Positions 4,774 to 46,334 of a stretch of 64,000 nt of DNA are shown piece by piece. Positions within the stretch are counted from its first letter, which is position 1, and every line of letters begins with the position of its first letter. Source of the DNA: Scenedesmus sp. PABB004. Taxonomy: Eukaryota. The notes beneath the pieces are model-generated. The model was not told where the DNA came from and did not search any database. It saw only the letters and a list, made by a program, of their open reading frames with translations. Location: NCBI GenBank assembly GCA_014905635.1, contig JABVCE010000017.1:558001-622000 (forward strand). The letters run 5' to 3'. The position numbers and the translations under genes are program-made.

Positions 4774-7546
4774 TCACTCCGCCTCGCCCGCCGCCGCCGC
4801 AGCCAGCGCGCGGCACACTGGCTTGTGCGCGCGCCACGCGGCCCTTTGGCAGGCCAGGCTGCAGAAGCGCGCGGGCGCCGCCGACGTGACGCACCCCGCG
4901 CACGTCCGGCCGCGCACCGCCGCCAGCTCGCTGAACGCGCCGTCCAGCGCCGTGCAGCGCGGGTTGTTGCAGCACGCGCGCAGCGGCAGCGCGGCGCACA
5001 CCGCGGCACACAGCTCCTCCGCCTGCGCAGCCAGCACCGGGCCGCGCTCGTGCACGGCAGGCAGCCCGGCCAGGCCGTCGGCCAGGGCGTCGTCCAGCTG
5101 CACGACCAGATCCTCCGACGCCGTGCACAGCTGCTCCTGCTGCGCCAGGAGGCTCCCCAGGCCCGCGCGCGAGGCGTCCGCCTGCAGCGGCCCCAGCGCG
5201 CGCAGGCGCGCGAACAGCAGCGCCGCCGCGTCGCGCAGGTCTGCCAGCATGCTCTGCAGTTCACTTGCCGGCAGCGGCTCGTCAGTGTTGCTGGGCGCGC
5301 CCGCGCCGGCCGCCGGCTGCATCGCCACCAGCGCCTGGCTCAGCAGCTGCGCCAGCACCGCCAGGCCGCGCGCCGCCAGCACCGCCCACAGCGCAGGCGG
5401 CTCGTACGCGAGCTGGCCACCGGCGGCTGCGACAGCTGCCGGCTGCGCGCGCGCCACCGCGTCGCCGACGGCGCAGCCGGTGCGCACCACCGCCAGGCAC
5501 CCGGTCGCCAGCTGTGGCAGCTCCTGCAGCGAGTCGGCCTCGCCTGCTGCAAGCGGGGTGCTGGCCGCCGCGCACTTGAGCGCCGTGAGCAGGCAGGCAC
5601 ACACCTCGCGCTGCAGCCGCAGGCCCGCGCCGCCGCCGGTGGTCATCAGCGCCGGCGCGGCGGCCAGGCTGGAACCGAGGCGACGGATGGCGCCGCACAT
5701 TGCGTGGGCTGTGGACAGGGCGATGCGCGGCACCTGGTTCGCCGCCCAGCACCTGGCCGCGCCCTCCAGCAACCGGCACAGGGTGGCGGGGTCCTGCTGC
5801 GCAAACGCCGCGAGCGCCGCGTCCGCTGCGCGGCGGCAGCAGTGCCGGCGGAGGCGGAGGCAGCGTGAGTGGAGTGAGCGCGCGAGCAGGCAGGGCGCGA
5901 GTGCGCAAGCTCAGCACCCAGGCTTAGCTGCCGCCGGCGCGTCGCGCACCCTCCGTTCCACAGTTCAGCGTCAGGACTTGGCCACAGCCTGCCAGACCGT
6001 GCAAAGCATTTCGTCGCCGGGCAGCCGCCAGCTCGTCCGCGCCCTCTGTGCCCGCCGCCGACGCGGAGCGGGGCATGACGCCCGCCTCTGGCTCCAGCAG
6101 CGCATCGGCGACGCGCCGGGCGAGCGGCAGGAACGCGCACACCACCGCCGCAGCCGCCGCCGCTGCCACCGCCTGGTTGGCCGCCGCTGCACCTTCAGAG
6201 GCTGGCCGGAGGCAGTCCATGATGGTGTCGGCGCAAATCACGCCGGCCACCAGTGCGTCTGGCGTTGACTGCAGCGCGGCGAGCTCCAGCGCCGCTTCCG
6301 CCGCTGCGGCCGCCAGCCCCACGCTGCCGACCGCTGCCAGGCCGCTGGCGCTGGCGCCGCTGCCGGCGCAGCTGGTCGGCGGCGAGACATCAAACAGGCG
6401 GGCAACTGCAGACATGCTGTCCATCACCAGCTCCTCGCTGTGATCGCCCTCGGGCACAGCAGAGGCGTCCAGCTCCAGCGCGCGCAGCAGCGCGGCGTGC
6501 GCCGCCGGCACGACGGGCGCGGCGCCGCCGCCAGAGCCGCCCCGGCCGTCAGCGGCGGCCGGCCGGCCGCGCTGCGCCTTGTGCCGGTGCGCCGCGCGCA
6601 GGGCGAGGTTGGCCAGCAGCAGCTGCTGCACCGCGGGGTCCGCCAGCAGCGACCGCTCCGCCTCTGCGCTCACGAGGCCGTGCTGCTCGGCCAGCACGAC
6701 ACTGTGGGCCATCCACCAGGATGCTCTGCACGCCACGCCAAGAGCGGGAACTACGACGCACACCATGGAGCCGCCGCCGGCCGCCGCGCGCCAGGCGCCG
6801 GCGCGGCGCAGCACGGCGAGCGCCAGCCGCGCGACCGGCTGCACAAGCGGCAGCAGCGGGCCCTGCAGCTCGCCCTCAGGCGGCCAGGCGGTGCGCGCGA
6901 CGTCTGCCGCCGTCAGCAGCGAAGCTGTTGCCATGCACGATGCCGTCAGCTCAGCGCTGCGCCCCTGCTCCTGCTGCCGCCGCCGCCGCTGCTTCTGCTG
7001 GGCCTCCAGCTCTGCGGCGAGGGCGGTGCAGGCCGCGGCCAGTGGCGGCAGCACGCCTGCGGGCGCGCGACGGTCACGGCCTGGTCAGGGGTGGGCCCGG
7101 CAGCTGCTGGCGCGCAGACCGCCAGCCGCCCGCCGCCCGCCGCCCGCCCGCCGCTCACCCGCGCGCTCCACCTCGGCCGCCAGCTCCGCCTTTGGCGCGC
7201 CAAGCATGGTGCGGATGTCAAAGCTGTTCTGAAGTACGCGGCACAGGCCGCCCAACGTCGTGCTGAGGCCCGCGCTGGCGACCGCCGCCGCTAGGCGCGT
7301 CTCCGGCGCCGCCGCCAGCTGCAGCACGCAGGCCAAGGCGTCCCCCAGCCGCGCCTGCACGCCGGGGGCGAGCAGCGCGGCCAGGTCGGCGCAGGGCGAG
7401 CCACTGGCCTCGGCTTCCTCGACCAGGCCGTCGAAATAGGCACGCAGCGGGTCTGCGCCTGCAGCCTCCGCCGCGAGCGCGTCGACGCTGCTCGCGCGCG
7501 CGCAGCGGCCCAGCAGGCCCGCCAGCTCCGCCGTCTCGGGCCGCAT
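4774..7546 (-). CDS. Helical protein with C-terminal MYND-type zinc finger, family copy 1 (3 exons)
   Basis: Starts MRPETAELAG. GT-AG introns at about 7158-7057 and 5949-5826 match the paralogs. C-terminus CCNNPRC...TCAGC...RFCSLACQRAAWRAHKPVC is MYND-like. Frame appears intact. Confidence 0.85.
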
Positions 7547-7859
7547 GAGGCCCGGAGCGAAGGCTCGCGGCGCTGGCGGGGCTGGCGGGGGCCGGCGCGG
7601 CGGCGGCGCGGGGCGGTTGGCGGGGGCCGCTGCCGCGCCGCGCTGCTGCCGCTGCCTGCTCGGCGCAGGGCGGCGCGGCCGGCCGGGCGGGTCAGGCTGA
7701 GGGCGGGCGGCGCGGCCTGTCACCTCAGCGGCGGGCGGCTGAAGCGCGGCGGCACAGCAGCGGCGGGTGACGCTGCGCAACCGCGCTGCCCAGGCAGAAG
7801 CTGGCCCGGGCCGCCACACAGCCGCACCGCTCGTCAACGCGCGCGCGAGCGATCCCAGC

Positions 7860-13703
<5,844 letters not shown>

Positions 13704-14232
13704 CCCGACGGCGGGTTTGAAACTCGGAGGGGAATAAACCCTGGGTGGGGGCAGCACCGAGGCGCTGGTCGGCGGCGGCGGCGGCCGGCCCCCCGTCGCC
13801 CGCGGCCGCGCGTGAGCGCAGCAGCACTGCGCTGGGTCTGAGTGGGCCGGATCGGCGGCCGCGGTTTTCGGCGGTTCGTCTGCGCAGCAGCGATCAGGGC
13901 GGCGCGTGAGCAGCGGGGTCTGGCTGGGCTTGGGGCGCGCGCCGCGGGGGTTTTGCACAACTGAAATCGCTTGCAGCAGTGGCCCGTTCACCAGCCCCCG
14001 CGCACGCCAGGGGCCCCCCTGCACGCTCGCAGACGTCGTCGACAGGCGCTCCCGCTGCTGCTGCGCTCGCCGCGCCGCCGCCGCCGCAGCAGCTCGCGTC
14101 GCGCGCGCGCGCCCAGACCACGCGCATCATCACCTTGCCGTTCGCCGGGACCGCCCGTGGGCGTGGCGACCGCGGGTGCAGCGGGGAGCGCGCGCGCGCT
14201 CGCGTCGCCGCCCGGATAGCGGCGGCGGCAGC

Positions 14233-15547: not shown

Positions 15548-16012
15548 ACGCCCCGCCGCCGGCGAGGCACCTCCCTGCCTGGGGCCAGCGACTCCACGCC
15601 GGGCCTGCGGCGCGCGGCGGCGTTGGCGCGGCCCCGGCAACCGCTGCGCCGCTGCCCGCGGTCGGCGCGCGCCGCGCGCCGCGTGTGCTGGGCCGCCGGT
15701 CGCCGCGCCCGCGACGGGAGGTCCCGCGCGCTGCGAGCCCTAGCGAGGTGCCGCGGCAGGCCAGGCACTTCCAGGCCAGGCAGCGGCGCGCCGCAGCGAA
15801 GGCCCGCGGCCGGCCTGCATCGCGTTTGAACCGCAGCCGACCACACCGGCCGACGGACCCCAGCCCCACACGGCCCTCGCGCGCCCGCCGTGCCCGCGCG
15901 CCGAGCGGCACCGGCAGCAGCGGCGGCGGCAGCAGCGCCCTGCCGCGCGCCGCGTGGTCCCGCCCGGCCCCGCCAGCCCTCGCCAGCGCCTCTCGATTGA
16001 TCCCCAGGCAGC

Positions 16013-18818
16013 ATGCCGCCCGAGACCGCGGCCCTAGCGGGCTGGCTGGCCCGCTGCGCGCGCGCGAGCAGCGTCGGCGCGCTCGCGGCGGAGGCGGACG
16101 CCGCGGAGCCGATGCGTGCGCATTTCGACGGCCTGGTCGAGGAAGCCGACGCCAGGGGCTCGCCCTGCGCCGACCTGGCCGCGCTGCTGGCCGCCGGCGT
16201 GCAGGCGCGGCTGGCGCAGGCCGTGGCGCGCGCGCTGGAGCTCCTGACGGCGCCAGCGACACGCCCGGCGGCGGCGGCGGCGGGCACCAGGGGCTCCAGC
16301 ATGACGCTTTATTGCCTTATATGCGTGCTGAGGAGCAGCTTTTGCATCCGTGCCACGCTTGGTGCGCCGATTGTGGAGCTGGCGGCCGAGGTGGAGCGCG
16401 CGGGTGAGCGGCGTGCGAGCGGCGGGCGGCGGGTGCTGGCGGTCTGCGCGCCAGCAGCTGCCGGGCCCACCCCTGACCAGATTGTGACTGTCGCGCCGCA
16501 GGCATGCTGCCGCCGCTGGCCGCGGCCTGCACTGCCCTCGCCGCGGAGCTGGAGGCCCAGCAGCAGCAGCAGCGGCGGCGGCAGCAGCAGCAGCAGCGGC
16601 GGCGGCAGCAGCAGCAGCAGCGGCAGGCGGGCAGTGCTGAGCTGTTTGCGCTGAGCACGACGGCAGGTGCGCTGCTGATGGCAGCACACACTGCTTATGA
16701 CGCCTGGCGACACAGCCAGCTGGAGGGCCCGCTGCTGCCGCTGGCGCAGCCGGCGGCGCGGCTGGCGCTCGCAGTGCTGCGCTGCGCCGGCGCCTGGCGC
16801 GCGGCGGCAGGCGGCAGCTCAAGCATGGGCACCCTGGTGCAGTTAACTGTCACTGAGGCGCGCATAGGGGCCTGGGGGGCAGCCCAGAGTGTCGTGCTGG
16901 CCCAGGAGCAATGCCGCGGGACTGCTGAGGCGCTGGGAGCACTGCTGTCAGACCCCGCAGTGCAGCAGCTGCTGCTGGCCAACCTCGCCCTGCGCGCGGC
17001 GCACCGGCACGAGGCGCAGCGCGGCCGGCCGGCTGCCGCCGACGGCCGCGTCGGCTCCAGCGGCGGCGGCGCGCCCGTCGTGCCGGCGCGGCACGCCGCG
17101 CTGCTGCGCGCGCTGGAGCTGGACGCCTCTGCGGTGCCCCAGGCAGAGAACAGCGAGAGGCTTGTGGAGTGTAGCATTGCTGCAGTCGGTTCGCTGTTTG
17201 CTGTCTCGCCGCCGACCAGCTGTGGCGGCAGCACTGGCGCCAGCGCCAGCGGCCTGCCAGCGGTCGGCGCGGGGCTGGCGGCCGCAGCGGCGGAGGTGGC
17301 GCTGGAGCTGGCCGCGCTGCAGCCAACGCCAGACGTGCTGGTGGCCGGCGTGATTTGCGCCGGCACCATCATGGACTGCCTCCGGCCAGCCTGCCACGGT
17401 GGGGCCTGGGACGACCAGGCGGCGGCAGACGCGGCGTCGGCGACGGTGGTGCGCGCGTTCCTGCCGCTCGCCCGGCCCACCGCCGCCGCGCTGCTGGAGC
17501 CAGAGGCGGGCAGCCCGCCCCGCGCGGCGGCTGCAGCTGCGGGCACAGACGGCGTGGACGAGCTGGCGGCTGCCCGGGCGCAGCGCACTCTGGCCGGTCT
17601 GAAGGCCTGTGGCCGAATCCTGCTGTGGCCCAACGGAGCGGAGGGTGCGTGGCGTGCCGCGCTGGCGGCAGCTCGCCCGGCCGAGTGGCGCACAGTCCGC
17701 CTCCCTGTCTGCGCGCTCGCTCACGCTGCCGCCGCCGCCGACACTGCTGCCGCCACGCAGCGGACGCAGCGCTGGAGGCGTTTGCGCGGCAGGACCCCTC
17801 CACCCTGTGCCGGCTGCTGGAGGGCTCGGCCAGGAGCTGGGCGGGCATTGACGTGTCGCGCTCTGCCCTGAGCGCAGCCTACTCTGTGTGCCGTGCCATC
17901 AGCCGCCTCGAGCCCAGCCTGGTGGACGCGCCGGCGCTGACGACCACCAGCGGCGGCGCGGGCCTGCGGCTGCAGCGTGAGGTGTTTGCCTGCCTGCTCA
18001 CGGCCCTCAAGTGCGCGGCGGCCGGCGCCCCGCTCACAGCGGCCGAGGCCAACCCCCTTCAGCAGCTGCTGGCACTGGCGGGCGGGTGCCTGGAGGTGGT
18101 GAGCACCGGCTGCACCATTGGCGACGCGGTGGCGCACGTGCAGCCGGCAGCCGTGGCAGCCGCCGGCGGCCAGCTCGCGTACGAGCCGCCCGCGCTGTGG
18201 GCGGTGCTGGCGGCACGCGGCGTGGCGGTGCTGGCGCAGCTGCTGGGCCAGGTGCTGGCTGCGCCACGGCCCACATTAGGCGCGGGCGCCCATCGCGACG
18301 CTGGTGCGGCAGGCGAGCTGGTGCTGCTGGTGACTGCTGGCGCCGTGGTGGCGGACCTGCGCGACGTGGCGACGCTGCTGGGCGCGCGCCTGCGCGCGCT
18401 GGGGCCGCTGCCGGCGGACCCCTAGCGCACGAGCCTGGAGCTCCTGCTGGCGCAGCAGGAGCAGCTGTGCACGGCGTCGGAGGATCTGGTCGTGCAGCTG
18501 GACGGCGCCCTGGCCGACGGCCTGGCCGGGCTGCCCGCCGTGCACGAGCGCGGCCCCGCGCTGGCCGCGCAGGCGGAGGAGCTGTGTGCCGCGGTGTGCG
18601 CCGCACTGCCGCTGCGCGCGTGCTGCAACAACCCGCGCTGCACGGCGCTGACCGACGCGCTCAGCGAGCTGGCGGCGGTGCGCGGCCGGACGTGCGCGGG
18701 GTGCGTCAAGTCGGCGGCGCCCGCGCACTTCTGCAGCTTGGCTTGCCAGAGGGCTGCGTGGCGCGCGCACAAGCCGGTGTGCCGCGCGCTGGCCGCGACG
18801 GCGGATGAGGCGGCGTGA
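16013..18818 (+). pseudogene. MYND-family copy 2 with in-frame TAG before the zinc finger (pseudogene or truncated allele)
   Basis: Same 3-exon structure (intron 1 at 16404-16501). TAG at 18423-18425 where the paralogs have a Ser codon (TCG in copies 3-5, TCC in copy 1). The frame then continues to an intact MYND-like finger and TGA at 18816-18818. Confidence 0.75.
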
Positions 18819-21392: not shown

Positions 21393-24178
21393 ATGCGGCC
21401 CGAGACGGCCGCCGTGGCGGGCTGGCTGGGCCGCTGCGCGTGCGCGAGCAGCGCCGACGCGCTCGCGGCGGCGGACGCCCACGTCGCCGGCGCCGGGCAG
21501 CTGATGCGCGCCTATTTCGCCGACCTGGTCGAGGCCGCCGAGGCCAGGGGCTCGCCCTGCGCCGACCTGGCCGCGCTGCTGGCCCCAAGCGTGCAGGCGC
21601 GGCTGGCGCAGGCCGTGGCGCGCGGCCTGGCGCTGGCGGCTGCGCTGGCGCGTGCGCCGGCGACGGAGGGCAGCGTGCGCTTCGCCAAGTCGCTGTCCAG
21701 CCTGTGCAGCGTGCTGAAGAACAGCTTTTGCATCCGCACCATCCTTGGCGAGCCAAGGGCAGGGCTGGCGGCCGAGGCCGCGCTCGCTGGTGAGCGGCGG
21801 TTCGCGGTGGTCGGTCTGCGCCGGCAGCTGCTGCGCCCGCCCCCGACCACGCCGCTGCCGCTGCGCGCGCGCGCGCAGGCGTGCTGCCGCCGCTGGCCGC
21901 CGCCTGCGCCGCCCTCGCCGCGGAGCTGGAGCGGCAGCACCAGCGGCAGGCGGGCAGCGCTGAGCTGGCGGCGGCATCGTGCGCGGCAGCTGGGCTGCTG
22001 CGGGCGGAACGTGCCGTGCGCACCGTCTGGCCGCCTAACGGCCAGCTGCAGGGCCCGCTGCTGCCGCTGGCGCAGCCGACCGCGCGCCTGGCGCTCGCCG
22101 TGCTGCGCCGCGCCGGCTCGTGGCGGGCGGGCGGCGGGTTTCGGGGGCTCAGACGTGGAGCCGGCTCTTGCCCAGGCGCGCGCAGTGGCCTGGTGGACAG
22201 CCCAGAGTGTGGTGGCAGCCCGCCGCAGCGGCTGCGTGAGCGCAGAGGCAGAGCGCGCGCTGCTGGCAGACCCCGCGGTGCAGCAGCTGCTGCTGGCGGA
22301 GCTCGCGCTGCGCGCGGCGCACCGGCACAAGGCGCAGCGCGGCCGGCCGGCCGCCGCCGACGGCCGCGCCCGCTCCGGCGGCAGCGGCGGCGCGCCCGAC
22401 GTGCCGGCCCTGCACGCCGCGCTGCTGCGCGCGCTGGAGCTGGACGCCAGCGCGGTGCCCCCGGGCGATCACAGTGAGGGGCTAGTGATTGAGAGCATCT
22501 CTGCAGTTGGCCACATGTTCCATATCTCGCCGCCGACCAATTGCGCCGGCAGCGGCGCCAGGGCCAGCACCGACGCCAGCGGCCCGCCATCGGTCGGCGG
22601 CGCGGGGCTGGCGGCTGCAGCCGCGGAAGCGGCGCTGGAGCTGGTGGCGCTGCGGCCAACGCAAGACGTGCTGGCTGCTGGCGCCGTGTGCGCCGGCACC
22701 GCCATGCGCTGCCTCGGGCCACCCTCTCCGGCGGCGACCGACCCGGCAGCGTCGGCGATTGCGGCTGCGGCAGTGCTGCGCGCGTTCCTGCCGCTCGCTC
22801 GGCCCGTCGCCGCCGCGCTGCTGGAGCCAGAGGCGGGCGTCACGCCCCGCTCGGCGACGGCAGGCACACAGGGCGCGGACGAGCTGGCGGCTGCCCGGCG
22901 ACAAAATGCTGTGTGCGGTCTGGTGGGCTGTGCCCACGTCCTGCTGTGCAGCAACGGAGCGCAGGGTGCGCTGCGTACTGCGCTGGCGGCAGCTCGCCCG
23001 GCCGAGGGGCGCACAGTCCGCCTCCCTGTCTGCGCGCTCGCTCACGCTGCCTCTGCCGCCGACACTGCTGCCGCCGTGCAGCGGACGCGGCGCTGGCGGT
23101 GTTTGCGCGGCAGGACCCCTCCACCCTGTGCCGGCTGCTGGAGGGCTCGGCCAGGAGCTGGGCGGGCATTGACGTGTCGCGCTCTGCCCTGAGCGCAGCC
23201 TACTCTGTGTGCCGTGCCATCAGCCGCCTCGAGCCCAGCCTGGTGGACGCGCCGGCGCTGACGACCACCAGCGGCGGCGCGGGCCTGCGGCTGCAGCGTG
23301 AGGTGTTTGCCTGCCTGCTCACGGCCCTCAAGTGCGCGGCGGCCGGCGCCCCGCTCACAGCGGCCGAGGCCAACCCCCTTCAGCAGCTGCTGGCACTGGC
23401 GGGCGGGTGCCTGGAGGTGGTGAGCACCGGCTGCGCCATCGGCGACGCCGTGGCGCATGCGCAGCCGGCTGCTGTCGCAGCCGCCGGTGGCCAGCTCGCG
23501 TACGAGCCGCCCGCGCTGTGGGCGGTGCTGGCGGCACGCGGCGTGGCGGTGATGGCACAGCTGCTGAGCCAGGCGCTGGTGGCGCTGCAGCCGGCGGCCA
23601 GCGCGGCCGTGCCCACCGACGCTGGTGTGCCTGGCGAGCTAGAGCGGCTGGTGAATGCTGCCGCCGTGGTGGCGCACCTGCACGACGCGGTGGCGCTGCT
23701 GGGCGAGCGCCTGGGCGAGCTGGGGTCGCTGCCGGCGGACGCCTCGCGCGCGGGCCTGGAGCTCCTGCTGGCGCAGCAGAAGCAGCTGGACACAGCGGCG
23801 GCGGAGCTGGCCGACCAGCTGGACGGCGCCCTGGCCGACGGCCTGGCCGGGCTGCCCGCCGTGCACGAGCGCGGCCCCGCGCTGGCCGCGCAGGCGGAGG
23901 AGCTGTGCGCCGCGGTGTGCGCCGCGCTGCCGCTGCGCGCGTGCTGCAACAACCCACGCTGCGCGGCGCTGACCGGCGCGCACAGCGAGCTGTCGGCGGT
24001 GCGCGGCCGGGCGTGCGGGGGGTGCGTCAAGTCGGCGGCGCCTGCACGCTTCTGCGGCGTGGCCTGCCAGAGGGCTGTGTGGCGCGCGCACAAGCCGGTG
24101 TGCGCCGCGCTGGCTGCGGCGGCGGCGGCGACTGGCGGCGCGGCAGCCGCGCTGCCGCGTGCGGGCGAGGCGGAGTGA
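21393..24178 (+). CDS. MYND-family copy 3 (apparent 1-nt frameshift near 22130, real or assembly error)
   Basis: MRPETAAVAGWLGRC, same exon pattern, MYND-like C-terminus. Homology switches frame at tggcgggcgggcggcgggtttc (about 22121-22142). Confidence 0.78.
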
Positions 24179-35060: not shown

Positions 35061-35111
<51 letters not shown>

Positions 35112-35333
35112 CCGCAGTGGGCTCTGCGCGTCGACCGGCGGCAGCTCGCCGCGTTTGCCGAGGCGCAGGCGGCCGCGCTCGAGCGCGCCGCCGCGGCGGC
35201 GGCGGCGGCGACGACGGCGTGCCCGCGGCGGCGGCGGGCTGCGGGCGGCACGCGCGGGAGGTGTGGGGCCTCGTAGGGGTGCTGTTTGAGCACGTGGACG
35301 GCGAGGACGACGCCAGCGACGCCGCCAACAACA

Positions 35334-35376
<43 letters not shown>

Positions 35377-37819
35377 GCTGATGATGCTGCGCGCCGGCGG
35401 CGACGGCGACGGCGGCGACAGCGATGCACGGGAAGCCGCCGAGCGCGGCGGCAGCCGGCTCGCGCTCGCCGGCATGCGGCGCAAGGCCGCGCTGTCGCGC
35501 TGGCTCGCCCGCAAGCTGCGCCCGCGCGTGGAGGCGCGGCTGCGCGCGCTGCAGGGCCCGGCGGGCCTCGCCGGCGCGGGGCTCGGCGGCGCCGCGGGCA
35601 GTGGCGGCGGCGGCGGCGGCGGCGAGGCCGAGGCGCTGCTGTGGTCGCTGCTGCTGCTCGTGTCGTCGCGCCAGTTTGCGGCGGCGGTCGCGCTCGCCGT
35701 CGCGGCGGGCGACGCGCGGCTCGCCACGCTGCTCGCGGCGGCGGGCCAGGCGGCCGGCGGCGCCGGCGCGGGCGCCGTCGCGCAGCAGGCGCAGGCCTGG
35801 GCGCGCGCGGGGCTGCTGCCCGGCCGGCTCTCGCGCCCGCGGCGCCTGCTGCTCGCGCTGCTCGCCGCCGCCGCGCCGGCGCCGGGCGGCGCCGGCGGCG
35901 TGGGCAGCCCGGACGGCCTCGTCGGCGTCGCCACTGCGTTGCGCCTCGACTGGGCGGCCGCGTACGGACTCTGGCTCTGGTGAGCGAGCGGGCCCCGCCC
36001 GGGGCGCCCGCCCGCCCCGCGCCGCCGCGCGTCGCCCCCGCTCGCCGTCCGTCGCTCGACCCCGCGCCGCGCGCGCGCGCCGCCGCGTCGCCCCGCCCCG
36101 CAGGTTTGGCGTGCCCTTCACCGAGCCCATCGCCGCAACGACGGCGGCGTTCACGGCGGCGCTCACGCGCGCGGCGGACCTGCCGCGCCCGCTGCCGCCG
36201 CACGCGGCGCCGCGCGGCGCCGGCGCGCGCGCCGGCCCCGCGGGCGCGGCGGTCGCGGACACGCAGTTCTGCCTGCTGCAGCTCGCGGCGCTCGGGCCGC
36301 ACGGCCTCGGCGCCGGGCTGCTGGACGCGTGTGACGGCGCGCAGGGCGGCGCGCAGGGCGGCGCGCAGGGCGGCGGCGGCATCGGGGCGCTGCTGGGCCG
36401 GCTGCTGCGCGTCGCGGGGCACACCCCAAACCCGCTGGACTACGGCGGCGCGTGGCAGCTGCTGGCGCTGCTGCAGAGCGTGGGCGCGCTGCCGCGGCGG
36501 CGCGACGAGTGTAAGCCGCCAGCGGCGCCGCGCCGCCGCGCCGCGCCACGCACCGCCTCAGCGCCGCGCCGCCGCGCCGGGCGGCCGCCCTCCTGACGCT
36601 GCGCGCGCCGCCGCGGCGCCGTCGCCGCGCCCGCAGACGAGGAGCTGGCGGTGCGCGTCGGCGCGTCGGCCATCGCGCAGCTGCTGCTGCTGGGAGGCGA
36701 CGCGGCGCCGTGGGCGGCGTTTGTCGCGCTGCACCTGCCCGACGCGGCGCTGAGCCCCGGCTGCCGTGGCGCGGCGCTGCGCGAGCTGCTGCAGCTGACG
36801 GCGCCCGACTGGGCGGAGCGGCCGCACCTCGTCGGCTGGCTGCGCGGCACGCTGCGCCTGCCGCTGCCCTGGCTCCACGGCGCGCAGGGCACCTGGGCCG
36901 GCTACTGCCGCCGCCCCAGCCTGCAGCTGCTGCACCTGCTGGCCGCCGGCGACTGGCCCGCCGCGCACGACGTCGCGTGCCGCACCGTGGCGCCGCTGCT
37001 CGCGCTCGCGGCGGCCGCGCCGGGCGGCGCGTCGCCGGCCGCGGCCGCCGCCGCCGTCGCGCGGCGGCGCGGCAGCGGCGTGGGCGCGGGTCCCGGCGGC
37101 GCGGCCGAGGCGGCGGTCGCCGAGCTGGTCGCGGCGGCGGCCGACTTCCTGGACGCCGCGGGCGACGAGGCGGCCGCGGCAGCGCGCGCCGACGCGGCCG
37201 CCGCCGCCGACGACGGCGCGCCCTGGTGGGCGAAGCCCGCCGAGCTGGCGGGCGAGCCCTCCGCGGCCGCCGCAGCCGCGGCGTACGTCGCTGCCGTCGC
37301 CGCGGGCGGCGCGCCGGGCGGCGCGGGCCGCGCGCTCGCCGCGCTGTGCCGCGTGCTCGGCGCCGCGCGCGGCGCGCTCGGCCCGCGTGGCAGCTCGGCG
37401 CGGGCGTGTACGGCGCGTGGGCGGGCGCGTTCCTGGACGCCGACGGCGGCCTGCGCGACCCCGCGGGCGCCGCGGGCGCCGGCGACGCCGGTCTCGCGGG
37501 CGACGCGGCGGAGCGCTGCCTCCACCTCGCCGACCTGCTGGCGCGCGCGGGCGACGGCGCCGGCGCCGGCGCCGCCGCGTGGTGGGGCGGCCCGCTGCAG
37601 CGCCTCGTCGCGGCGCGCATGACCGCCGACGCGGGACGCGCGCTCGTGCGGCTCGGCGCGGCCGCCGGCGGCGGCGCCGGCGGCGCCGCGCCGCTGCTCG
37701 CGCCGCTCGCGGCGGGCGGCTTCAGCGGCGGCGGCCTGCCCGGCGGCGGCGGCCTCCTGTTGGGCGGGCAGGGCGGGCCGGGGCTGCTGGCTGGCGCCGC
37801 GGCGGGCGTCGGGGTGTGA
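28465..37819 (+). CDS. NUP98: Nuclear pore NUP98-NUP96 precursor (FG repeats, GLEBS, autoproteolytic domain, Nup96)
   Basis: MFGQPSFG start and many FG-repeat exons. GLEBS motif TITALPVYQTKSVEELRWEDY. Autoprotease domain GYSTEPPISEL...FVSYDPADGLWVFE|VEHFSRY with the HF/S site at 33680-33688. Nup96 motif DASLMLGRSFRVGWGPGG. Apparent frameshifts at about 34095, 35220 and 37385. Confidence 0.92.
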
Positions 37820-37992
37820 GCGCGGCGCGGAGGGCCGGCCACTTACGCGCTGCACGACGCGCTGAAACCGCGCGAGCGCGCCGCCATCGAGCCCGCGGGG
37901 AGTTTGATCAGGCCGGCCCTCTTGGCTCGCGTACAGGCAACGAGCGCGCACGCACGCACGACGCGCACGCGCTCGCCGCCGGCCGGCCAGCG

Positions 37993-39149
37993 ATGACCAG
38001 CGCCGCCGCGGCCGTGGACGGCGAGCCCGGCATCAAACGCTCGCCGAGCTTGCACACGCTCGCGCACTCGCTCAGGGCCACCAGCGTCACCGCGCCGGAC
38101 GTGGGCACCAAGGTCTGCCGCAGCAGCGCCGGCGGGCTGCGCGGCCGCAAGCCCCCCAGGGGCGCCGCGCCTCGCCCGGCAGCCCCGGCAACCGCGGCAG
38201 CCCCGGCAACCGCGCCGCACGCTCCGTGGGCGGCGTGCCCGCGGGCGCGACCGCGGCGGCGGCGCCGGCAGTTGCCGCTGCTCGCGCGCCGCTGCTCGCG
38301 CGGCTGCGGCCGACGCGCCGCCGCGCGGCGGGGTCGCAGGAGTTTGTGGCGTGCTGCGAGGAGATACTGCCGTTCTTCGACCACCTGGGCCCCGTGTTTG
38401 CCGTCGCGCGGGGCGAGTTTGAGGCGAAGCTCGACGTCCTGCAGGCGCAGGCCGCGGCGGCGCCGCGCCTCGCGGCCGTCGTCGCGGCCGACCGCGCCGC
38501 GCAGCGTGCCACGGTCAAGAACAGCGCGACGCGCAACCTGCACCGGCTCACCGCGGCCATCCTGTTCGTCAAGCTGCTCTTCGAGCGGCTCGTGGCAACA
38601 GACGCGGAGCCCGACGCAGGCGGCGGCGGCGGCGGCGGCGGCGGCGCGACGCTGCGCGAGGCAGCGAGCGCAGCGTGCGCGCCGCGCCGCGCCACCTGCA
38701 GCCCGAACGGCGCTGGCCGCGGGCCACCACCCGCCGGCGCGCGCCGGCGCCCAGGCCCGCCCGCGCGCCCGCGCAGGTACGAGGCGGCGCTCGCGCCCTT
38801 CCACACAGCCATCGTGCGCGGCGTGGTGCGCGCGGGGCTGCTGACGCTGCCGACCCGGGAGGCCTTCATCGCCGCCATTGGTGCGGCGCGGGGCGCGGGG
38901 CGGGGCGGGGCTGGGCGCGCGGGGCCGCCCGCGCCGGCGTGGCGCTCCGGCGGGAGCCGCGCGACCGCGCCGCCGCCGCGTGCCGCCCCCTGCGCCGCCG
39001 TCCCCTGCGCGGCAGGCGAGAGCGAGGACAGCGCGGCGGAGCGCGCGCGCGAGGTCGTGTCGCACTGCGCCGCCGTGCACGCGGCGGTGAGCGGCCTCCT
39101 CGGGGGCATCGACATGCCCGCCAGCAGCGTGTGGCTCTGGCCGCGGTGA
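37993..39149 (+). CDS. Glycolipid transfer protein family, ACD11/CPTP-like
   Basis: EFVACCEEILPFFDHLGPVFAVARGEFEAKL, KNSATRNLHRL and YEAALAPFHTAIVRGVVRAGLLTLPTREAF are GLTP-fold motifs. About 4 exons. Confidence 0.85.
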
Positions 39150-39653
39150 CCGCGTGCGCCTGGCAGCTCAGCGCGCGCGGCGCCGCCCCCCGGCCACCGC
39201 TCCCGCCGCTGCCGCTGTCCAGGCAGTCAGCCTCTTGCTTGCCCGCCGCCCGCGGCCGTCGCGCGCCGCGCGCCGCGCGTGCTGGGCCGCGGTCGCTCCG
39301 CCCACGACAAGCGGCACCGCGAGCCGCGGCCTGGCGAGGTGCAGCGGCAGGCCAGGCACCCCCCAGGACAGCCCGGCCGGCGCGGCGCGCGCCGCAGCGA
39401 GGGCCCGCGCCGCCGGCCTGCACCCCGCGCCTGCACCGCGGCCGTCCGCCCGCCGCCCCGTCGCTGCCGCTGACCACACCGGCCTGTGGGCCCCAGCCCC
39501 GTCGCGGCCTCGCGCGCCCGCCCTGCCCGCGCGCCGAGCAGCAGCAGCATCGGCGGCAGCGGCGGTGGTGCTCCGAGCACCGCTGCGCGCCCCCGCGGTC
39601 CCGTCGGCCCGCGCCAGCCCTCGCCAGCGCCTCTCGCTTGAGGCACAGGCATC

Positions 39654-42418
39654 ATGAGGCCCGAGACCGCGGAGCTGGAGGGCTGGCTGGGCCGCTGCGC
39701 GCGCGCGAGCAGCGTGGACGCGCTCGCGGCGGACGGCGTCGCCGGGGAGTCGCTGCGCGCCTACTTTGCCGGCCTGTCGAAGGCAGCCACAGCCAGTGGC
39801 TCGCCCTGCGCCGACCTGGCCGCGCTGCTGGCCGCCGGCGTGCAGGCGCGGCTGATCCAGGCCGTGGTCCGCGCGCTGGCGCTGGTGGCGGCGGCGCCGG
39901 CGACGCAGGTGGCGCTGGTGAACAGCATAGACTTCGCCGGCACGCTCAATGCCCTGTGCAGCGTTCAGCAGCAGAGCCATGAGATGCGCGCCATGCTTGG
40001 CGCGCCGAAGGCGGAGCTGGCGGCCGAGGTGGAGCGCGCGGGTGAGCGGCGGGCGGGCGGCGGGCGGCGGGCGTTGGCGGCCTGCGCGCCAGCAGCTGCC
40101 GGGCCTACCCCTGCCCAGACGGTGACCATCGCGCCCGCACAGGCATGCTGCCGCCGCTGGCCGCGGCCTGCGCCGCCCACGCCGCGGAGCTGGAGGCCCA
40201 GCAGCGGCGGCGGCAGCAGCAGCAGCTGCTGCGGCAGAGGTGCGCCGCTGAGCTGATTGCACTGAGCATGGCGGCAGGTGCGCTGCTGATGGCAGCAGAC
40301 ACCGCGTGTGACGCCTGGCCACAAGACCACCAGCTGGAGGGCCCGCTGCTGCCGCTGGCGCAGCCGGCCGCGCGGCTGGCGCTCGCGGTGCTACGCTGCG
40401 CCGGCGCCTTGCGCGCGGCGGCCAGTGGCATGCTGTCATTTGCGGTGCCTCTGGTGCAAAACGCGTTGACATATGCTCACATTGCAGCCTGGTGGACAGC
40501 CCAGAGTACCCTGGCCCAGCAGCCTGGCCGCGAGACTGCAGAGACGCTGCTGGCAGACCCAGCGGTGCAGCAGCTGCTGCTGGCCAACCTTGCCCTGCGC
40601 GCGGCGCACCGGCACGAGGCGCAGCGCGGCCGGCCGGCTGCCGCCGACGGTGGCGCCGGCTCTGCCGGCGGCAGCGCGCCCGTCGTGCCGGCCCGGCACG
40701 CCGCGCTGCTGCGCGCGCTGGGGCTGGATGCCTCTGCTGTGCCCCCGGGTGAGCACAATGAGAACCTGGTGGAGTGTAGCATCGCTGCAGTAGATATGCT
40801 GTTTGATGTCTCGCCGCCGACCGGCTGCGGCGGCAGCCTGCCGCAGCCACGCGGCGCGGGGCTGGCGGCCGCGGCGGCGGAGGTGGCACTGGAGCTGGTG
40901 GCTCTGCAGCCGACTTGGCGCTTGCTGGTGGCCGGCGTGAAGTGCGCCGGCACCATCAAAAACTGCCTCCGGCCAGCCTCCGAGGATGGGGCGTGGGACA
41001 ACCAGGCGGCGGCAGACGCAGCGTCGGCGGCGGTGCTGCGCGCGTTCCTGCCGCTCGCCCGGCCCGTCGCCGCCGCGCTGCTGGAGCCGGAGGCGGGCGT
41101 CGCGCCCCTCACGGCGGCGGCAGCCGCGCGCACAGACGGCGCGGACGAGCTCGAGGCTGACCGGCACAATGCTGAGAACGGTCTGGCGGGCTGTGCCCAA
41201 GTCCTGCTGCTGAGCAATGGAGCAGAGGGTGCGTGGTGTGCTGCGCTGGCGGCAGCTGGCCTGGTCGCTGAGGGGCGCACACCTCCCTGTCTGCGCGCTC
41301 GCTGACTCTGCCGCCGCCGCCGACACTGCTGCCGCTGCGCAGCGGACGCAGCGCTGGCGACGTTTGCGCGCCAGGACCCCTCCACGCTGTGCCGGCTGCT
41401 CGAGGGCTCAGCCAGGAGCTGGGCGGGCAAGGAGAGCCCGCGGGACGCCCTGGGCGCAGCCCACGCAGCGTGCAACGCCATCAGGCGGCTCGGGCCCAGC
41501 CTGGCAGCCGCGGCGGCGCTGGCGACAACCCAGGGCGGCGCGGGCCTGCGGCTGCAGCGCGAGGTGTTTGCCTGCCTGCTCACGGCCCTCAAGTGCGCGG
41601 CGGTTGGCGTGGGACCGGCGGCAGCCGCCCTTGGCAGGCATGAGCAGCTGCTGGCACTGGCGAGGTCGTGCCTGGACGTGGTGCGCGCCGGTTGTGCTGT
41701 CGGCGACGCGGTGGCGCGCGCGCAGCCGGCAGCTGTCGCAGCCGCCGGCGGCCAGCTCGCGTACGAGCCGCCCGCGCTGTGGGCGGTGCTGGCGGCGCGC
41801 GGCCTGGCGGTGATGGCGCAGCTGCTGAGCCAGCCGCTGGCGGCGCTCGAGCCGGCGGCTGGCGTGGCCTTGCCGAGCGATGCTGGCGCGCCTGGCGAGC
41901 TGGAGCTGCTGGAGACTGCTGCCGGCGTGCTGGCGCACCTGCACAGCGCAGCGGTGCTGCTGGGCACTCGCCTGCGCGCGCTGGGGCCGCTGCCGGCGGA
42001 CGCCTCGCGCGCGGGCCTGGAGCGCCTGCTGGCGCAGCAGGAGCAGCTGTGCACGGCGTCGGCTGAGCTGTTCACGCAGCTGTATGGTGACGACGCCCTG
42101 GACGACGACGATGCGGCCTCGCTCGCCACAGCGCAGGAGCAAGGCCCCGCGCTGGTCGCGCAGGCGGAGGAGCTGTGCAGCGCGGTGTGCGCCACGCTGC
42201 CGCTGCGCGCGTGCTGCAACAACCTGCGCTGCGTCGCGCTGGCCGGCGCGCTCAGCGAGCTGGCGGCGGTGCGCGGCCGGACGTGCGCGGGGTGCGTCAC
42301 GTCGGCCGCGCCCGCCCGCTTCTGCAGCCTGGCTTGCCAGAGGGCTGCGTGGCGCGCGCACAAGCCGGTGTGCCGCGCGCTGGCCGCGGCGGCGGCGGGC
42401 GCGCCGGGCGCCGAGTGA
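39654..42418 (+). CDS. MYND-family copy 4 (3 exons, apparently intact)
   Basis: MRPETAELEGWLGRC start, conserved intron positions, CCNNLRC...CAGC...FCSLACQRAAWRAHKPVC. Confidence 0.85.
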
Positions 42419-42659
42419 GGCGGAGTGAGCGGGTCGTTTGGCGGCGGCCGGGGCCCCTGTGCATGCTGAGTGGTTGTGGTGGCGGCGGCTGCAACTGTGA
42501 GTTGAGCGGGCCGCGGCCGGCCATCGCGCAACACCCTGTCCGCCGCACCGGCGCCGGAGCCTGCGTGCAGCGCGCGCTGTGCCGCCGCCGGCGGCGACGC
42601 CGCCACGCGCCCGGCAACAGCCCCAGCTCCAGAGCGAGTCACGGCGGCAGGGCGCTCCG

Positions 42660-43030
42660 CGCAGGTACGAGGCGGCGCTCGCGCCCTTCCACACAGCCAT
42701 CGTGCGCGGCGTGGTGCGCGCGGGGCTGCTGACGCTGCCGACCCGGGAGGCCTTCATCGCCGCCATTGGTGCGGCGCGGGGCGCGGCGGGGCGGGGCTGG
42801 GCGCGCGGGGCCGCCCGCGCCGGCGTGGCGCTCCGGCGAGAGCAACCGCGCCGCCGCCGCGTGCCGCCCCCTGCGCCGCCGTCCCCTGCGCGGCAGGCGA
42901 GAGCGAGGACAGCGCGGCGGAGCGCGCGCGCGAGGTCGTGTCGCACTGCGCCGCCGTGCACGCGGCGGTGAGCGGCCTCCTCGGGGGCATCGACATGCCC
43001 GCCAGCAGCGTGTGGCTCTGGCCGCGGTGA
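42660..43030 (+). pseudogene. Orphan duplicate of the last two exons of the GLTP/ACD11-like gene
   Basis: Near-identical to 38772-39149 (YEAALAPFH...WLWPR*) but the upstream exons are missing. Confidence 0.9.
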
Positions 43031-43420
43031 CCGCGTGCGCCTGGCAGCTCAGCGCGCGCGGCGCCGCCCCCCGGCCACCGCTCCCGCCGCTGCCGCTGTC
43101 CAGGCAGTCAGCCTCTTGCTTGCCCGCCGCCCGCGGCCGTCGCGCGCCGCGCGCCGCGCGTGCTGGGCCGCGGTCGCTCCGCCCACGACAAGCGGCACCG
43201 CGAGCCGCGGCCTGGCGAGGTGCAGCGGCAGGCCAGGCACCCCCCAGGACAGCCCGGCCGGCGCGGCGCGCGCCGCAGCGAGGGCCCGCGCCGCCGGCCT
43301 GCACCCCGCGCCTGCACCGCGGCCGTCCGCCCGCCGCCCCGTCGCTGCCGCTGACCACACCGGCCTGTGGGCCCCAGCCCCGTCGCGGCCTCGCGCGCCC
43401 GCCCTGCCCGCGCGCCGAGC
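42660..43420 (+). repeat. Second copy of a direct repeat of about 770 bp (first copy 38772-39538)
   Basis: By-eye alignment is near-identical with an offset of about 3.88 kb. It covers the GLTP 3' exons and the MYND upstream region. Confidence 0.92.
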
Positions 43421-43541
43421 GGCAGCATCGGCGGCTGCAGCGGCGGCAGCAGCGACAGCAGCGCCCGCCGCCGCCGCCCCGCCCAGCCCCGTCAGCCGTC
43501 GCCAGCCCTCGCCAGCGCCTCTCGCTTGAGGCCTAGGCATC

Positions 43542-46334
43542 ATGAGGCCTGAGACCGCGGCGCTGGCGGCCTGGCTGGGCCGCTGCGCGCGAGCGAGCAG
43601 CGTCAACGCGCTCGCGGCGGAGGGCGCCGCGGCGCAGCTGCGCGCCTATTTTGCCGGCCTGTCGAAGGCGGCCACCGGCAGTGGCTCGCTCTCCGCCGAC
43701 CTGGCCGCGCTGCTGGCCGCCGGCGTGCAGGCGCGAGCCGCGCAGGCCGTGGCGCGCGCGCTGGAGCAGCTGGCGGCGCGCCCGGCGGCGGCGGCGGGCA
43801 GCGAGGGCTTTGCCATCACGCTCAATGCCCTGTGCGACGTGCTGCAAAAGAGCCATGACATGCGCACCAGGCTTGGTGCGCCCGACACGGAGCTGGCGGC
43901 CGAGGTGGAGCGCGCGGGTGAGCGGCGTGCGAGCGCCGGGCAGCGGCAGTTGTCGGTCTGCGCGCCAGCAGCTGCCGGGCCCACCCCTGACCAGACCGTG
44001 ACCGTCGCGCCCGCAGGCATGCTGCCGCCGCTGGCCGCGGCCTGCACTGCCCTCGCTGCGGAGCTGGAGCAGCACCACCAGCGGCGGCGGCAGCAGCGGC
44101 AGCAGCCACAGCGGCATCGGCAGGGCGCCGGTGATGAGCTGATGGCACTGACCTTGACGGCAGGTGCGCTGCTGACGGCAGCACACACTGCTTTTTACGC
44201 CTGGTCGCAGCTGGAGGGCCCGCTGCTGCTGCTGGCGCAGCCGGCCGCGCGCCTGGCGCTCGCCGTGCTGCGCCGCGCCGGCGCCTCTCGCGCGGCGGCC
44301 GACGGCAGCTCAAGAATGGGCGCCGTGGTGCATTTAGCTGTCGCCAGGGCGCGCACCTGGGCCTGGGGGGCAGCCCAGGGTTTCGTGCAGGCCCAGGGGC
44401 GCGGCCGCGTGAGCGCAGACGCACAGCGCGCGCTGCTGTCAGACCCCGCAGTGCAGCAGCTGCTGCTGGCAGAGCTCGCCCTGTGCGCGGCGCACCGGCA
44501 CGAGGCGCAGCGCGGCCGGCCGGCTGCGGCCGACGGTGGCGCCAGCTCGGGCGGCGGCGGCCCGCCCGTCGTGTCGGCGCGGCACGCCGCGCTGCTGCGC
44601 GCGCTGGAGCTGGATGCCTCTGCGGTGCTCCAGGCAGAGCACAGCGAGGCGCTGGTGACGGACAGCATCTCTGCAGTTGCCCAGCTGTTTGATGTCTCGC
44701 CGCCGACCAGCTGCGGCGGCAGCCTGCCGCAGCCACGCGGCGCCGCGCTGGCTGCCGCGGCGGCGGAGGTGGCGCTGGAGCTGGTGGCGCTGCAGCCGAC
44801 GCGCCGCGTGCTGCTGGCTGGCGTGGTCTGCGCCGGCGCCATCGTAAACCGCCTCCTGCAAGCCTCGGAGGGTGGGGCGCAGGACAAACAGGCGGCGGCA
44901 GAGGCAGCGTCGGCGGCGGTGGTGCGTACGTTCCTGCCGCTCGCCCGGCCCACCGCCGCCGCGCTGCTGGAGCCGGAGGCGGGCAGCTCGCCCCACGCTG
45001 CGGCTGCAGCTGCGAGCACAGAGGGCGTGGACGAGCTCGAGGCTGACCGGCAGCGGCGCAATGCTTTGCGCGGTCTGGAGGTGGGCTGTGGCCCAGTCCT
45101 GCTGCTGAGCAATGGGGCAGAGGGTCCGTGGTGTGCTGCGCTGGCGGCAGCTGGCCTGGTCGCTGAGTGCGCACACTCGCAGTCTGCCTCGCGCCCTCGC
45201 TCACACCGCCTCTGCCGCCGCCAACACTGCTGCCGCCGCGCAGCGGACGCGGCGCTGGCGGTGTTTGCGCGGCAGGACCCCTCCACGCTGTGCCGGCTAC
45301 TGGAGGGCGCGGCCAGGAGCTGGGCGGGCTGGGAGGAGCCGCATGGCGCCCTGAGCGCAGCCCACGCAGTGTGCGACGCCATCAGGCGGCTCGGCCCCAG
45401 CCTGGCAGCCGCGCCGGCGCTGGCGACAACTGGCGGCGGCGCGGGCCTGCGTCTGCAGCGCGAGGTGTTTGCCTGCCTGCTCACGGCGCTCAAGTGTGTA
45501 GCAGAGGCCGCACCGCTCGCAGCGGCCGAGGCCGACTCGCTGCAGCGGCTGCGGGCGCTGGCGAGCGGATGCATGGCCGTGGTGCTCTCCGGCTGCGATG
45601 TCGGCGACGCGGTGGCGCACGCGCAGCCGGCAGCCGTGGCGGCCGCCGGCGGCCAGCTCGCGTACGAGCCGCCCGCGCTGTGGGCGGTGCTGGCGGCGCG
45701 CGGCCTGGCGGTGCTGGCGCAGCTGCTGAGCCAGGCGCTGGTGGTGCTGCAGCCGGTGGCCGACACGGCCGCGCCCAGCGACGCTGGTGCGCCTTGTGGG
45801 GTGGCGTCGCTGGATATCGCGGTGTTTGTGCTGGCGCACCTGCACGACGCGGCGACGCTGCTGGGCGAGCGCCTGCGCGCGCTGGGGCCGCTGCCGGCGG
45901 ACGCCTCGGGCGCGGGCCTGGAGCGCCTGCTGGCGCAGCAGGAGCAGCTGTGCACAGCGGTGGCGCAGCTGGCCGCGCAGCTGGACGGTGCCCTCGCCGA
46001 CGACGATGCGGCCTCGCTCGCCACAGCGCAGGAGCGCGGCCCCGCGCTGGCCGCGCAGGCGGAGGAGCTGTGCGCCGCGGTGTGCGCCGCGCTGCCGCTG
46101 CGCGCGTGCTGCAACAACCCGCGCTGCACGGCGCTGACCGGCGCGCACAGCGAGCTGGCGGCGGTGCGCGGCTGGACGTGCGCGGGGTGCGTCACGTCGG
46201 CCGCGCCCGCGCGCTTCTGCGGCGTGGCCTGCCAGGCAGCCGCGTGGCGCGCGCACAAGCCGGTGTGCCGCGCGCTGGCCGCGGGTGTGGCGGCGACTGG
46301 CGGCGCGGCCGCGCGTGCGGGCGAGGCGGAGTGA
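43542..46334 (+). CDS. MYND-family copy 5 (3 exons, apparently intact)
   Basis: MRPETAALAAWLGRC start, introns at 43918-44016 and 45124-45243, MYND-like finger, ends RAGEAE*. Confidence 0.85.
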   Translation: MRPETAALAAWLGRCARASSVNALAAEGAAAQLRAYFAGLSKAATGSGSLSADLAALLAAGVQARAAQAVARALEQLAARPAAAAGSEGFAITLNALCDVLQKSHDMRTRLGAPDTELAAEVERAGERRASAGQRQLSVCAPAAAGPTPDQTVTVAPAGMLPPLAAACTALAAELEQHHQRRRQQRQQPQRHRQGAGDELMALTLTAGALLTAAHTAFYAWSQLEGPLLLLAQPAARLALAVLRRAGASRAAADGSSRMGAVVHLAVARARTWAWGAAQGFVQAQGRGRVSADAQRALLSDPAVQQLLLAELALCAAHRHEAQRGRPAAADGGASSGGGGPPVVSARHAALLRALELDASAVLQAEHSEALVTDSISAVAQLFDVSPPTSCGGSLPQPRGAALAAAAAEVALELVALQPTRRVLLAGVVCAGAIVNRLLQASEGGAQDKQAAAEAASAAVVRTFLPLARPTAAALLEPEAGSSPHAAAAAASTEGVDELEADRQRRNALRGLEVGCGPVLLLSNGAEGPWCAALAAAGLVAECAHSQSASRPRSHRLCRRQHCCRRAADAALAVFARQDPSTLCRLLEGAARSWAGWEEPHGALSAAHAVCDAIRRLGPSLAAAPALATTGGGAGLRLQREVFACLLTALKCVAEAAPLAAAEADSLQRLRALASGCMAVVLSGCDVGDAVAHAQPAAVAAAGGQLAYEPPALWAVLAARGLAVLAQLLSQALVVLQPVADTAAPSDAGAPCGVASLDIAVFVLAHLHDAATLLGERLRALGPLPADASGAGLERLLAQQEQLCTAVAQLAAQLDGALADDDAASLATAQERGPALAAQAEELCAAVCAALPLRACCNNPRCTALTGAHSELAAVRGWTCAGCVTSAAPARFCGVACQAAAWRAHKPVCRALAAGVAATGGAAARAGEAE

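Follow-up and report, generated by a model that had tools for sequence, protein, structure and literature searches.

The genome of the unicellular green alga Scenedesmus sp. PABB004 harbours an undescribed family of genes whose products are predicted to be all-alpha proteins of about 850 amino acids (aa), each ending in a MYND-like zinc-finger module. Five members lie in a stretch of 64,000 nucleotides (contig JABVCE010000017.1, positions 558,001 to 622,000, assembly GCA_014905635.1; hereafter the window). Conserved and variable helices alternate along nearly the whole predicted body, with variability placed by the model on the exposed face of every second helix. The paralogs are mosaics produced by gene conversion, and their variable patches change faster at both synonymous and non-synonymous sites. 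A first-pass annotation, made from the letters of the DNA alone, had proposed a diversified recognition system that evolves as immune, allorecognition or conflict genes do. The reading favoured here, with moderate confidence, is a lineage-specific adaptor family that evolves by birth and death and by gene conversion and exposes one constrained and one free face. The data can be accounted for without invoking selection for diversity.

The five copies, termed c1 to c5 in their order along the window, were located by tblastn with three pieces of c1, by self-blastn and by DNA alignment of the five loci (Table 1). With the c1 pieces as query, these five loci give the only strong matches in the window, and all ten pairs of copies share 77–86% nucleotide identity across 2.8–3.7 kb. 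The ATG codons placed from the DNA alignment stand at the first exon position of each copy. Two GT..AG introns, of 89–102 and 114–124 nt, are common to all five in the same phase, and their splice signals are conserved (donors G/GTGAGC and G/GTGCG, acceptors CAG/). Homology searches, start codons and shared introns thus agree on the five three-exon paralogs recognized at first. Three of them (c1, c4 and c5) are intact and encode 848–857 aa. The lesions of the other two had been overlooked. Copy c2 carries an in-frame TAG at 18423–18425, codon 733 of 863, upstream of the MYND-like finger; c3 carries a +1 frameshift within 22124–22187, in a variable patch, with an extra G inside a G-rich run. 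The first two exons of c3 add up to 1484 nt, which leaves a remainder of 2 on division by three where the other four copies leave 1, and its frame is open apart from this lesion, which may be an assembly error. Metagenome reads over 15200–24400 offer only short pieces 90–95% alike with many chimeric joints; these pieces probably stem from other GC-rich organisms and are uninformative on both the TAG and the frameshift.

At a G+C content of about 80%, the window keeps all frames open: stop-free frames of 300–1500 codons occur in all six, and 272 open reading frames (ORFs) reach at least 150 aa. An open frame or its length is therefore no evidence of coding here. In c5 both introns are in frame and stop-free, so that 43530–46334 forms a single ORF. 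The indels are more telling. With the exception of the c3 lesion, none of the roughly 33 exon indel blocks disturbs the frame; among 13 intron indels, only 4 are multiples of three. This argues for a coding function under selection.

The family comprises at least 12 loci in PABB004, nine of them on one contig of 795,618 bp, and is masked by gene fusions in the public record. One of these fusions, the protein P0155 ('GULLO1', 1663 aa), spans 7743–18818 on the plus strand of the window and contains c2 letter for letter, joined to a gulonolactone oxidase and to TAF13; its gene model removes the stretch with the c2 TAG as an intron. Seven further members lie beyond the window and were counted from protein matches only: P0001, P0002, P0005 and P0157 share the 795,618-bp contig with the window copies, while P0003, P0004 and P0156 are spread over three other contigs. 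Most of them are fused in annotation to neighbours named CYL3, PYRB2, ASC1-like, PIG-K and FH6. As seen in their gene models, P0005 and P0157 have a scrambled finger and P0004 is short of about 85 aa. The genome is described in PMC12571836 as 39.8 Mb in size, with 78.5% GC and only 7,092 gene models; fusions such as GULLO1 may contribute in part to this low count.

AlphaFold2 was applied to the unspliced c5 reading frame; the stretches encoded by its two introns come out as loops of low confidence. The model consists of helices throughout, about 23 of them with lengths of 14–31 residues (predicted local distance difference test, pLDDT, 66.8; predicted template modelling score, pTM, 0.62). Exon 3 of c1 modelled alone is also all-alpha (pLDDT 69.2, pTM 0.71). 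The predicted fold, all-alpha and solenoid-like, is in keeping with the alpha-solenoid suggested at first, and its best structural matches, at background significance, are HEAT/TPR solenoids and designed repeats. Foldseek against the PDB found no match at E 0.001 or better, with TM-scores of about 0.1; its top rows, below significance, are the TPR/HEAT solenoids Ctr9, TTC7, importin-beta and transportins. VIA ranks designed helical repeats first at Z 14–15, although by the tool's own guide helical models reach a Z of about 14 as background. Any likeness to HEAT, ARM and TPR solenoids and to designed helical repeats lies in the predicted stacked-helix body, for which their structures rank highest. 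The HEAT/ARM/TPR solenoids carry a repeat motif, whereas none was found here: the helical body matches no Pfam repeat family at E up to 1, and an all-against-all hhalign comparison of 11 hairpin units (55 comparisons) detected no similarity between hairpins, with a probability of at most 5.4%.

Conserved and variable stretches alternate in an alignment of ten paralogs, and the conserved blocks named by the first-pass annotation are visible by eye in the aligned copies. Column entropy from these ten sequences was mapped on the c5 model, and alternation was counted over helices of at least 14 residues outside the intron-encoded and low-confidence stretches. On this count, conserved helices take turns with variable ones through almost the entire protein (20 of 21 turning points; P=0.0011 by permutation). 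The lag-1 correlation of helix variability is −0.67 (P=0.0004), and variability has a spectral peak at 61–71 residues, the length of one hairpin. The regular alternation claimed at first therefore holds at the level of helices; a strict period of the variable patches was rejected, as their spacing is irregular (coefficient of variation 0.81).

Within the helices, variability has a preferred side. Among 161 highly variable positions, 121 fall within confident helices, outside the loops. Correlations of variability at lags 3, 4 and 7 match what a single helix face would give, and 9 of the 23 helices have a significant variability moment that points, in all nine, 125–178 degrees away from the hydrophobic moment. 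Conserved helices show a mean pairwise identity of 0.69–0.89 and mostly one to three variants (up to seven); variable helices show 0.39–0.64, with 7–10 variants in up to ten paralogs. An example is provided by the 18-aa segment whose divergence was noted first, and whose five quoted strings were all found letter for letter. It belongs to helix 88–110 of the model, which has a mean entropy of 1.63, an entropy moment 3.5 times the null and 168 degrees from the hydrophobic moment, and ten distinct variants in ten paralogs. Mapped on the model, variable residues are placed on the exposed face of every second helix, so that one face varies and the other is constant, in accord with the single variable face proposed at first. 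That the variable helices would share a single face follows from the two-layer geometry of a solenoid rather than from the coordinates. Composition differs too. The variable patches are indeed richer in A/T, as first noted: GC is 0.785 in invariant columns (0.92 at third codon positions, GC3) and 0.667 in the most variable columns (GC3 0.81). Variable residues are polar (R, D, S, Q, E, T, N) with few aromatics; conserved ones are mainly A and L.

A predicted solenoid-like fold with one variable helix per hairpin is also what RNA-binding repeat proteins of the PPR/OPR type, NCL-like, would present, the variable positions then reading nucleotides of organellar transcripts. Arginine makes up 11% of the most variable class, and the NCL (NCC-like) OPR cluster of Chlamydomonas reinhardtii, in the account given of it in PMC8226300, demonstrates fast expansion and diversification of such families in green algae. 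This cluster is lineage-specific, rapidly duplicating and composed of helical-repeat proteins with a role stated to be unknown, and resembles the present family as a clustered, fast-duplicating set of algal helical proteins; among described systems it comes closest to a parallel. However, NCL proteins are OPR-repeat RNA binders, whereas the present family has a MYND finger and neither a sequence repeat nor an OPR/PPR match. The lack of a Pfam repeat match and of any likeness between hairpins, reported above, counts against this explanation, as does the unit length, which is about 65–70 aa instead of 35–40. Furthermore, the model starts a helix at residue 3, an N-terminus that by eye is unlike a transit peptide, and the C-terminal module suggests protein binding. 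An RNA-binding role of this type is quite improbable.

The C-terminal module was introduced at first as a MYND finger. A constant, MYND-like module is indeed present; its Pfam score, a point that had been overlooked, falls short of the threshold. The zf-MYND profile (PF01753) scores 16.9 bits in c5 and 18.8 bits in c1, below the gathering cut-off of 22.7 bits, and the match spans only profile positions 12–39 of 39, the second half. At E up to 1 Pfam returns only MYND-type fingers, among them the MYND-like zf-C6H2, whose 16.8 bits stay under its cut-off of 30, and the precomputed Pfam list of the database assigns PF01753 to P0004. The MYND domains of DEAF1 and ETO in the PDB match weakly (E 0.11–0.57). 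The CxxC, CxxxC and HxxxC motifs are kept in all five window copies and in four of the five other aligned paralogs, P0005 having lost them. The first zinc knuckle reads CCNNPRC (Cx4C or Cx5C) instead of the CxxC of the eight-ligand MYND pattern. In both AlphaFold models the finger region has a pLDDT below 50 and the MYND fold is not recovered, the alignments being shallow and zinc absent.

MYND fingers dock on proline-rich (PxLxP-type) peptides, and the combination of a helical-repeat body with a MYND finger is known from yeast Mub1 and from animal ZMYND10, ZMYND12 and SMYD. The present family resembles such MYND-finger adaptors (PF01753) in having a CxxC...CxxxC...HxxxC module at the C-terminus of a body predicted to be all-alpha. 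It differs from them in the sub-threshold score, in the CCNNPRC knuckle and in a body for which no Pfam match was found here. It is moreover multi-copy, mosaic and fast-evolving, traits not described for known MYND adaptors.

Outside PABB004, only the C-terminal module of the family could be aligned. The helical scaffold found no relative beyond this genome in database searches of limited reach: three word-based searches were confined to the 8000 candidates with the most words in common, a restriction that limits sensitivity for an Ala-rich protein. In a profile search, 148 of the 150 listed matches hit only the N-terminal, fused-domain part of the profile, one of them (P0006) being aspartate carbamoyltransferase; among the matches listed, the family part was reached by P0005 and P0133 alone, and scaffold relatives of lower score could rank further down. 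The 'MYND-type domain-containing protein' A0A383VT77 of Tetradesmus obliquus matches the C-terminal 93 aa of the family at 57% identity, and the rest of it does not align. No one-to-one ortholog was found, Tetradesmus included, by a search of limited sensitivity. As a lead only, the 30 nearest clusters in the ESM Atlas are large Chlorophyta proteins with zf-MYND (score 0.92–0.93). Literature searches on PABB004, on MYND/Chlamydomonas expansion and on zf-MYND/Chlorophyta expansion, with supplementary tables outside their scope, yielded no title or abstract opening that describes this family. MYND-type zinc-finger orthogroups of Chlamydomonas relatives are listed among the most extreme expansions, with no function given in the relevant passage (Craig et al. 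2021, PMC8226300), and species- or genus-specific MYND-finger families are mentioned for Scenedesmus sp. NREL 46B-D3 (Calhoun et al. 2021, PMC7955037). The likeness of the present family to these chlorophycean cases is that of a lineage-specific MYND expansion in green algae; the passages of the two papers that deal with them give no anatomy.

The history of the five copies is one of exchange, duplication and decay. Eight different best trees are obtained across 13 gene segments, and the nearest pair of copies shifts along the gene, a pattern from which the paralogs are judged to be strongly mosaic through gene conversion. Copies c2 and c3, otherwise about 81% identical, share an exact tract of 334 bp that spans two variable patches and inside which windowed distances fall to 0.00–0.01; it is taken as a recent gene-conversion tract. 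Upstream of c4, a flank of 700 bp is repeated upstream of c5 with two mismatches and seven gap columns (99.7% identity, including a 576-bp exact stretch). The bodies of these two genes are 70–92% identical, the drop being sharp at about 160 bp before the ATG. On this sequence comparison c4 and c5 form a tandem duplication unit. Within the repeated flank, the last exon of GLTP (glycolipid transfer protein) is present as a copy at 42645–42770 (+), the original of which lies near 38.7–38.9 kb; GLTP Pfam matches occur in both 37908–39146 and 42501–42968, and the exon copy is a gene fragment carried by the tandem duplication. Decay is represented by the two broken window copies, and damage may affect as many as 5 of the 12 copies known: it is seen in the DNA of c2 and c3, and for P0004, P0005 and P0157 in gene models only. 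The tandem duplicate, the number of loci and the two broken copies out of five support the birth-and-death evolution inferred at the outset.

Selection on the two kinds of column was assessed through omega, the ratio of non-synonymous to synonymous divergence (dN/dS). By NG86, whole-gene dN/dS is 0.81–1.04, and across column classes of rising variability, set from five other paralogs, it takes values of 0.53, 0.90, 1.22 and 1.63. Because GC3 is extreme, pairwise maximum-likelihood models (GY94-F3x4) were used. These give an omega of 0.49–0.67 overall and of 0.20–0.40 in columns invariant in the other paralogs, where all ten pairs are significantly below 1. In columns with at least three residues the range is 0.76–1.02, and with at least four it is 0.82–1.99; pairwise likelihood ratio tests (LRTs) in variable columns place none of the ten pairs significantly above 1.

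Site models require a tree, and one tree does not fit the eight topologies of the 13 segments; a single-tree PAML-style test was accordingly set aside in favour of segment-specific trees, in an in-house implementation with branch lengths fixed up to scale. M0 yields an omega of 0.57 and M1a a log-likelihood (lnL) of −7433.5. M1a with three overall rate classes fits far better (lnL −7376.6). This best site model assigns 38% of sites an omega of 0.09 and 62% an omega of 1, and the addition of a class with omega above 1 gains only 0.5 (lnL −7376.1, LRT 1.07, p=0.59). Positive selection, or adaptive diversification, is not shown, and the immune-, allorecognition- or conflict-like mode of evolution proposed at first, which implies it, finds no backing in these tests. 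What is observed is that the variable patches change faster at synonymous and non-synonymous sites alike. The conserved blocks and introns may be homogenised by conversion to a greater degree than the patches, whether divergence itself prevents conversion there or homogenised patches are purged by selection; another possibility is constraint on synonymous sites within the conserved blocks.

A true diversified recognition system would read the same alternation differently. The variable row would be a binding face under diversifying selection, its specificities generated by mutation and by cassette shuffling through conversion, with broken copies as donors, and the MYND finger would couple each protein to a common partner. 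The predicted geometry fits, with variability on the exposed face of one helix per hairpin and 8–10 variants per variable helix in ten paralogs; the 334-bp tract would have moved two patches between c2 and c3; and copy number turns over in clusters, with no ortholog found in Tetradesmus. Several results also weigh against a free face that drifts at about the neutral rate. The selection tests rest on five sequences and have low power. By NG86, dN exceeds dS in the variable columns in ten of ten pairs, with an omega of 1.2–1.6, and dN there (0.40–0.58) is about twice the intron distance (0.11–0.34); these columns were picked from other paralogs, a choice that is not fully independent because of shared ancestry. 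A simple site-model comparison does give a signal under M2a (lnL −7405.9, 10% of sites at omega 4.3), which beats M1a with an LRT of 55 (p=1e-12); it vanishes once overall rate variation is allowed, as described above, and no pairwise test exceeds an omega of 1. Finally, codons that specify the same amino acid also differ about twofold more at synonymous sites when they lie in the variable patches (0.26–0.29 vs 0.14; 0.136, 0.179, 0.255 and 0.288 by rising variability class). The patches hold deeper synonymous divergence than introns and conserved blocks, which is also expected if selection removes conversion tracts that homogenise patches.

The variable residues, on the other hand, are ordinary polar surface residues with few aromatics, and the possible damage to up to 5 of 12 copies likewise speaks against this reading. 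Uniform dN/dS, variable residues in loops and one-to-one orthologs had been set down beforehand as outcomes contrary to the recognition proposal; instead, dN/dS is not uniform, most variable residues lie in helices and no one-to-one ortholog was found. An immune-like recognition role is possible, and diversifying selection on a binding face is on the whole unlikely, though far from negligible. More doubtful is the fullest form of the proposal, an algal recognition family in which about ten hypervariable helices are reassorted by conversion among at least 12 clustered paralogs, broken donors included, around a constant MYND finger. If true, each cell would hold a panel of binding surfaces, and a unicellular green alga would possess a helical counterpart of the cassette-based receptors of immunity or allorecognition.

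The surroundings of the copies bear on a further explanation, namely that the genes travel with a mobile or otherwise selfish element, which would place copies among housekeeping genes. Within the window they stand in both orientations between unrelated genes (Table 1), each with its own 135–400 bp of shared upstream sequence, and copies elsewhere adjoin housekeeping genes as well, hence the fusions made by annotators. Homology nevertheless stops within about 70 bp past the stop codon, self-blastn found no long flanking repeats, and none of the 229 flanking ORFs scanned matches a transposase or reverse transcriptase. The introns are retained, which excludes retroposition, and the c4/c5 unit carries a GLTP fragment as an ordinary tandem duplication would. 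Mobile cargo is accordingly a very improbable explanation. The two CCCH finger genes, which adjoin c1 and c3, show no mutual self-blastn match of at least 150 bp at E 1e-20. Elsewhere in the window, an inverted repeat of about 630 bp with 89% identity (52479–53074 and 63374–64000) is unrelated to the family and reaches the window end, and a long (GT)n microsatellite occupies about 8720–8880, where ORF translations read as His-Thr or Cys-Val runs.

Table 1. Features of the window; positions are those of the 64,000-nucleotide stretch.
Feature	Position	Strand	Remarks
Paralog c1	4774..7546	-	intact, 848 aa; exons 7546-7159, 7056-5950, 5825-4774; open frame up to TGA 4776-4774
Paralog c2	16013..18818	+	premature TAG; exons 16013-16403, 16502-17644, 17761-18818
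Paralog c3	21393..24178	+	+1 frameshift; exons 21393-21789, 21879-22965, 23082-24178
Paralog c4	39654..42418	+	intact, 849 aa; exons 39654-40041, 40143-41228, 41343-42418
Paralog c5	43542..46334	+	intact, 857 aa; exons 43542-43917, 44017-45123, 45244-46334
First-noted variable segment, c5	43809..43862	+	18 aa; part of variable helix 88-110 of the model
Equivalent segment, c1	7214-7267	-	
Equivalent segment, c2	16295-16348	+	
Equivalent segment, c3	21681-21734	+	
Equivalent segment, c4	39933-39986	+	
MYND-like zinc-finger stretch, c5	46107..46268	+	CCNNPRC...CxxC...CxxxC...HxxxC
Same module, c1	4813-4974	-	
Same module, c2	18621-18782	+	
Same module, c3	23942-24103	+	
Same module, c4	42212-42373	+	
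Exact c2/c3 tract, 334 bp	c2 17780..18113 = c3 23101-23434	+	spans two variable patches
c4 upstream flank	38792..39491	+	repeated upstream of c5
Copy of this flank upstream of c5	42680-43372	+	includes last GLTP exon copy
CCCH finger gene	ORF 2968-3654	-	Pfam; adjoins c1
TAF13	ORF 15066-15503	+	Pfam; just upstream of c2
Second CCCH finger gene	~20.5-20.8 kb	-	Pfam; adjoins c3
Nup98-96 nucleoporin gene	29918-36000	+	FG repeats, autopeptidase S59, Nup96 domains; much of the c3-c4 gap
GLTP	ORF 37908-39146, match ~38.3-38.6 kb	+	Pfam
RCC1 repeats	57-58.4 kb		Pfam

In the favoured reading, that of a lineage-specific adaptor family, each gene would give rise to a protein of about 850 aa in which some 23 long helices stack as a solenoid, followed by the C-terminal MYND-like module. 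Purifying selection holds every second helix and the finger module, while change on the solvent-exposed face of the intervening helices proceeds at roughly the neutral rate. Copies arise by local duplication, swap tracts by gene conversion so as to become mosaics, and decay. The proteins may act as protein–protein adaptors: the finger would bind a proline-rich motif in a partner common to all, and the row of conserved helices would provide a joint functional surface; the variable row would be an unconstrained outer surface, which may or may not confer specificity on individual paralogs.

Expanded MYND-finger families are among the largest unexplained expansions in chlorophycean genomes, and the anatomy and evolution of their proteins were previously undescribed. 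For the present family, the predicted anatomy consists of a constant finger, a constant helix row and a free row, and the mode of evolution is duplication, mosaic conversion and decay. Should the free row prove to be a selected binding face, the proteins of this unicellular alga would represent diversified receptors of a new kind; if it is not selected, the family would provide a natural example of how conversion, extreme GC and rate variation among sites can mimic positive selection in standard site tests.

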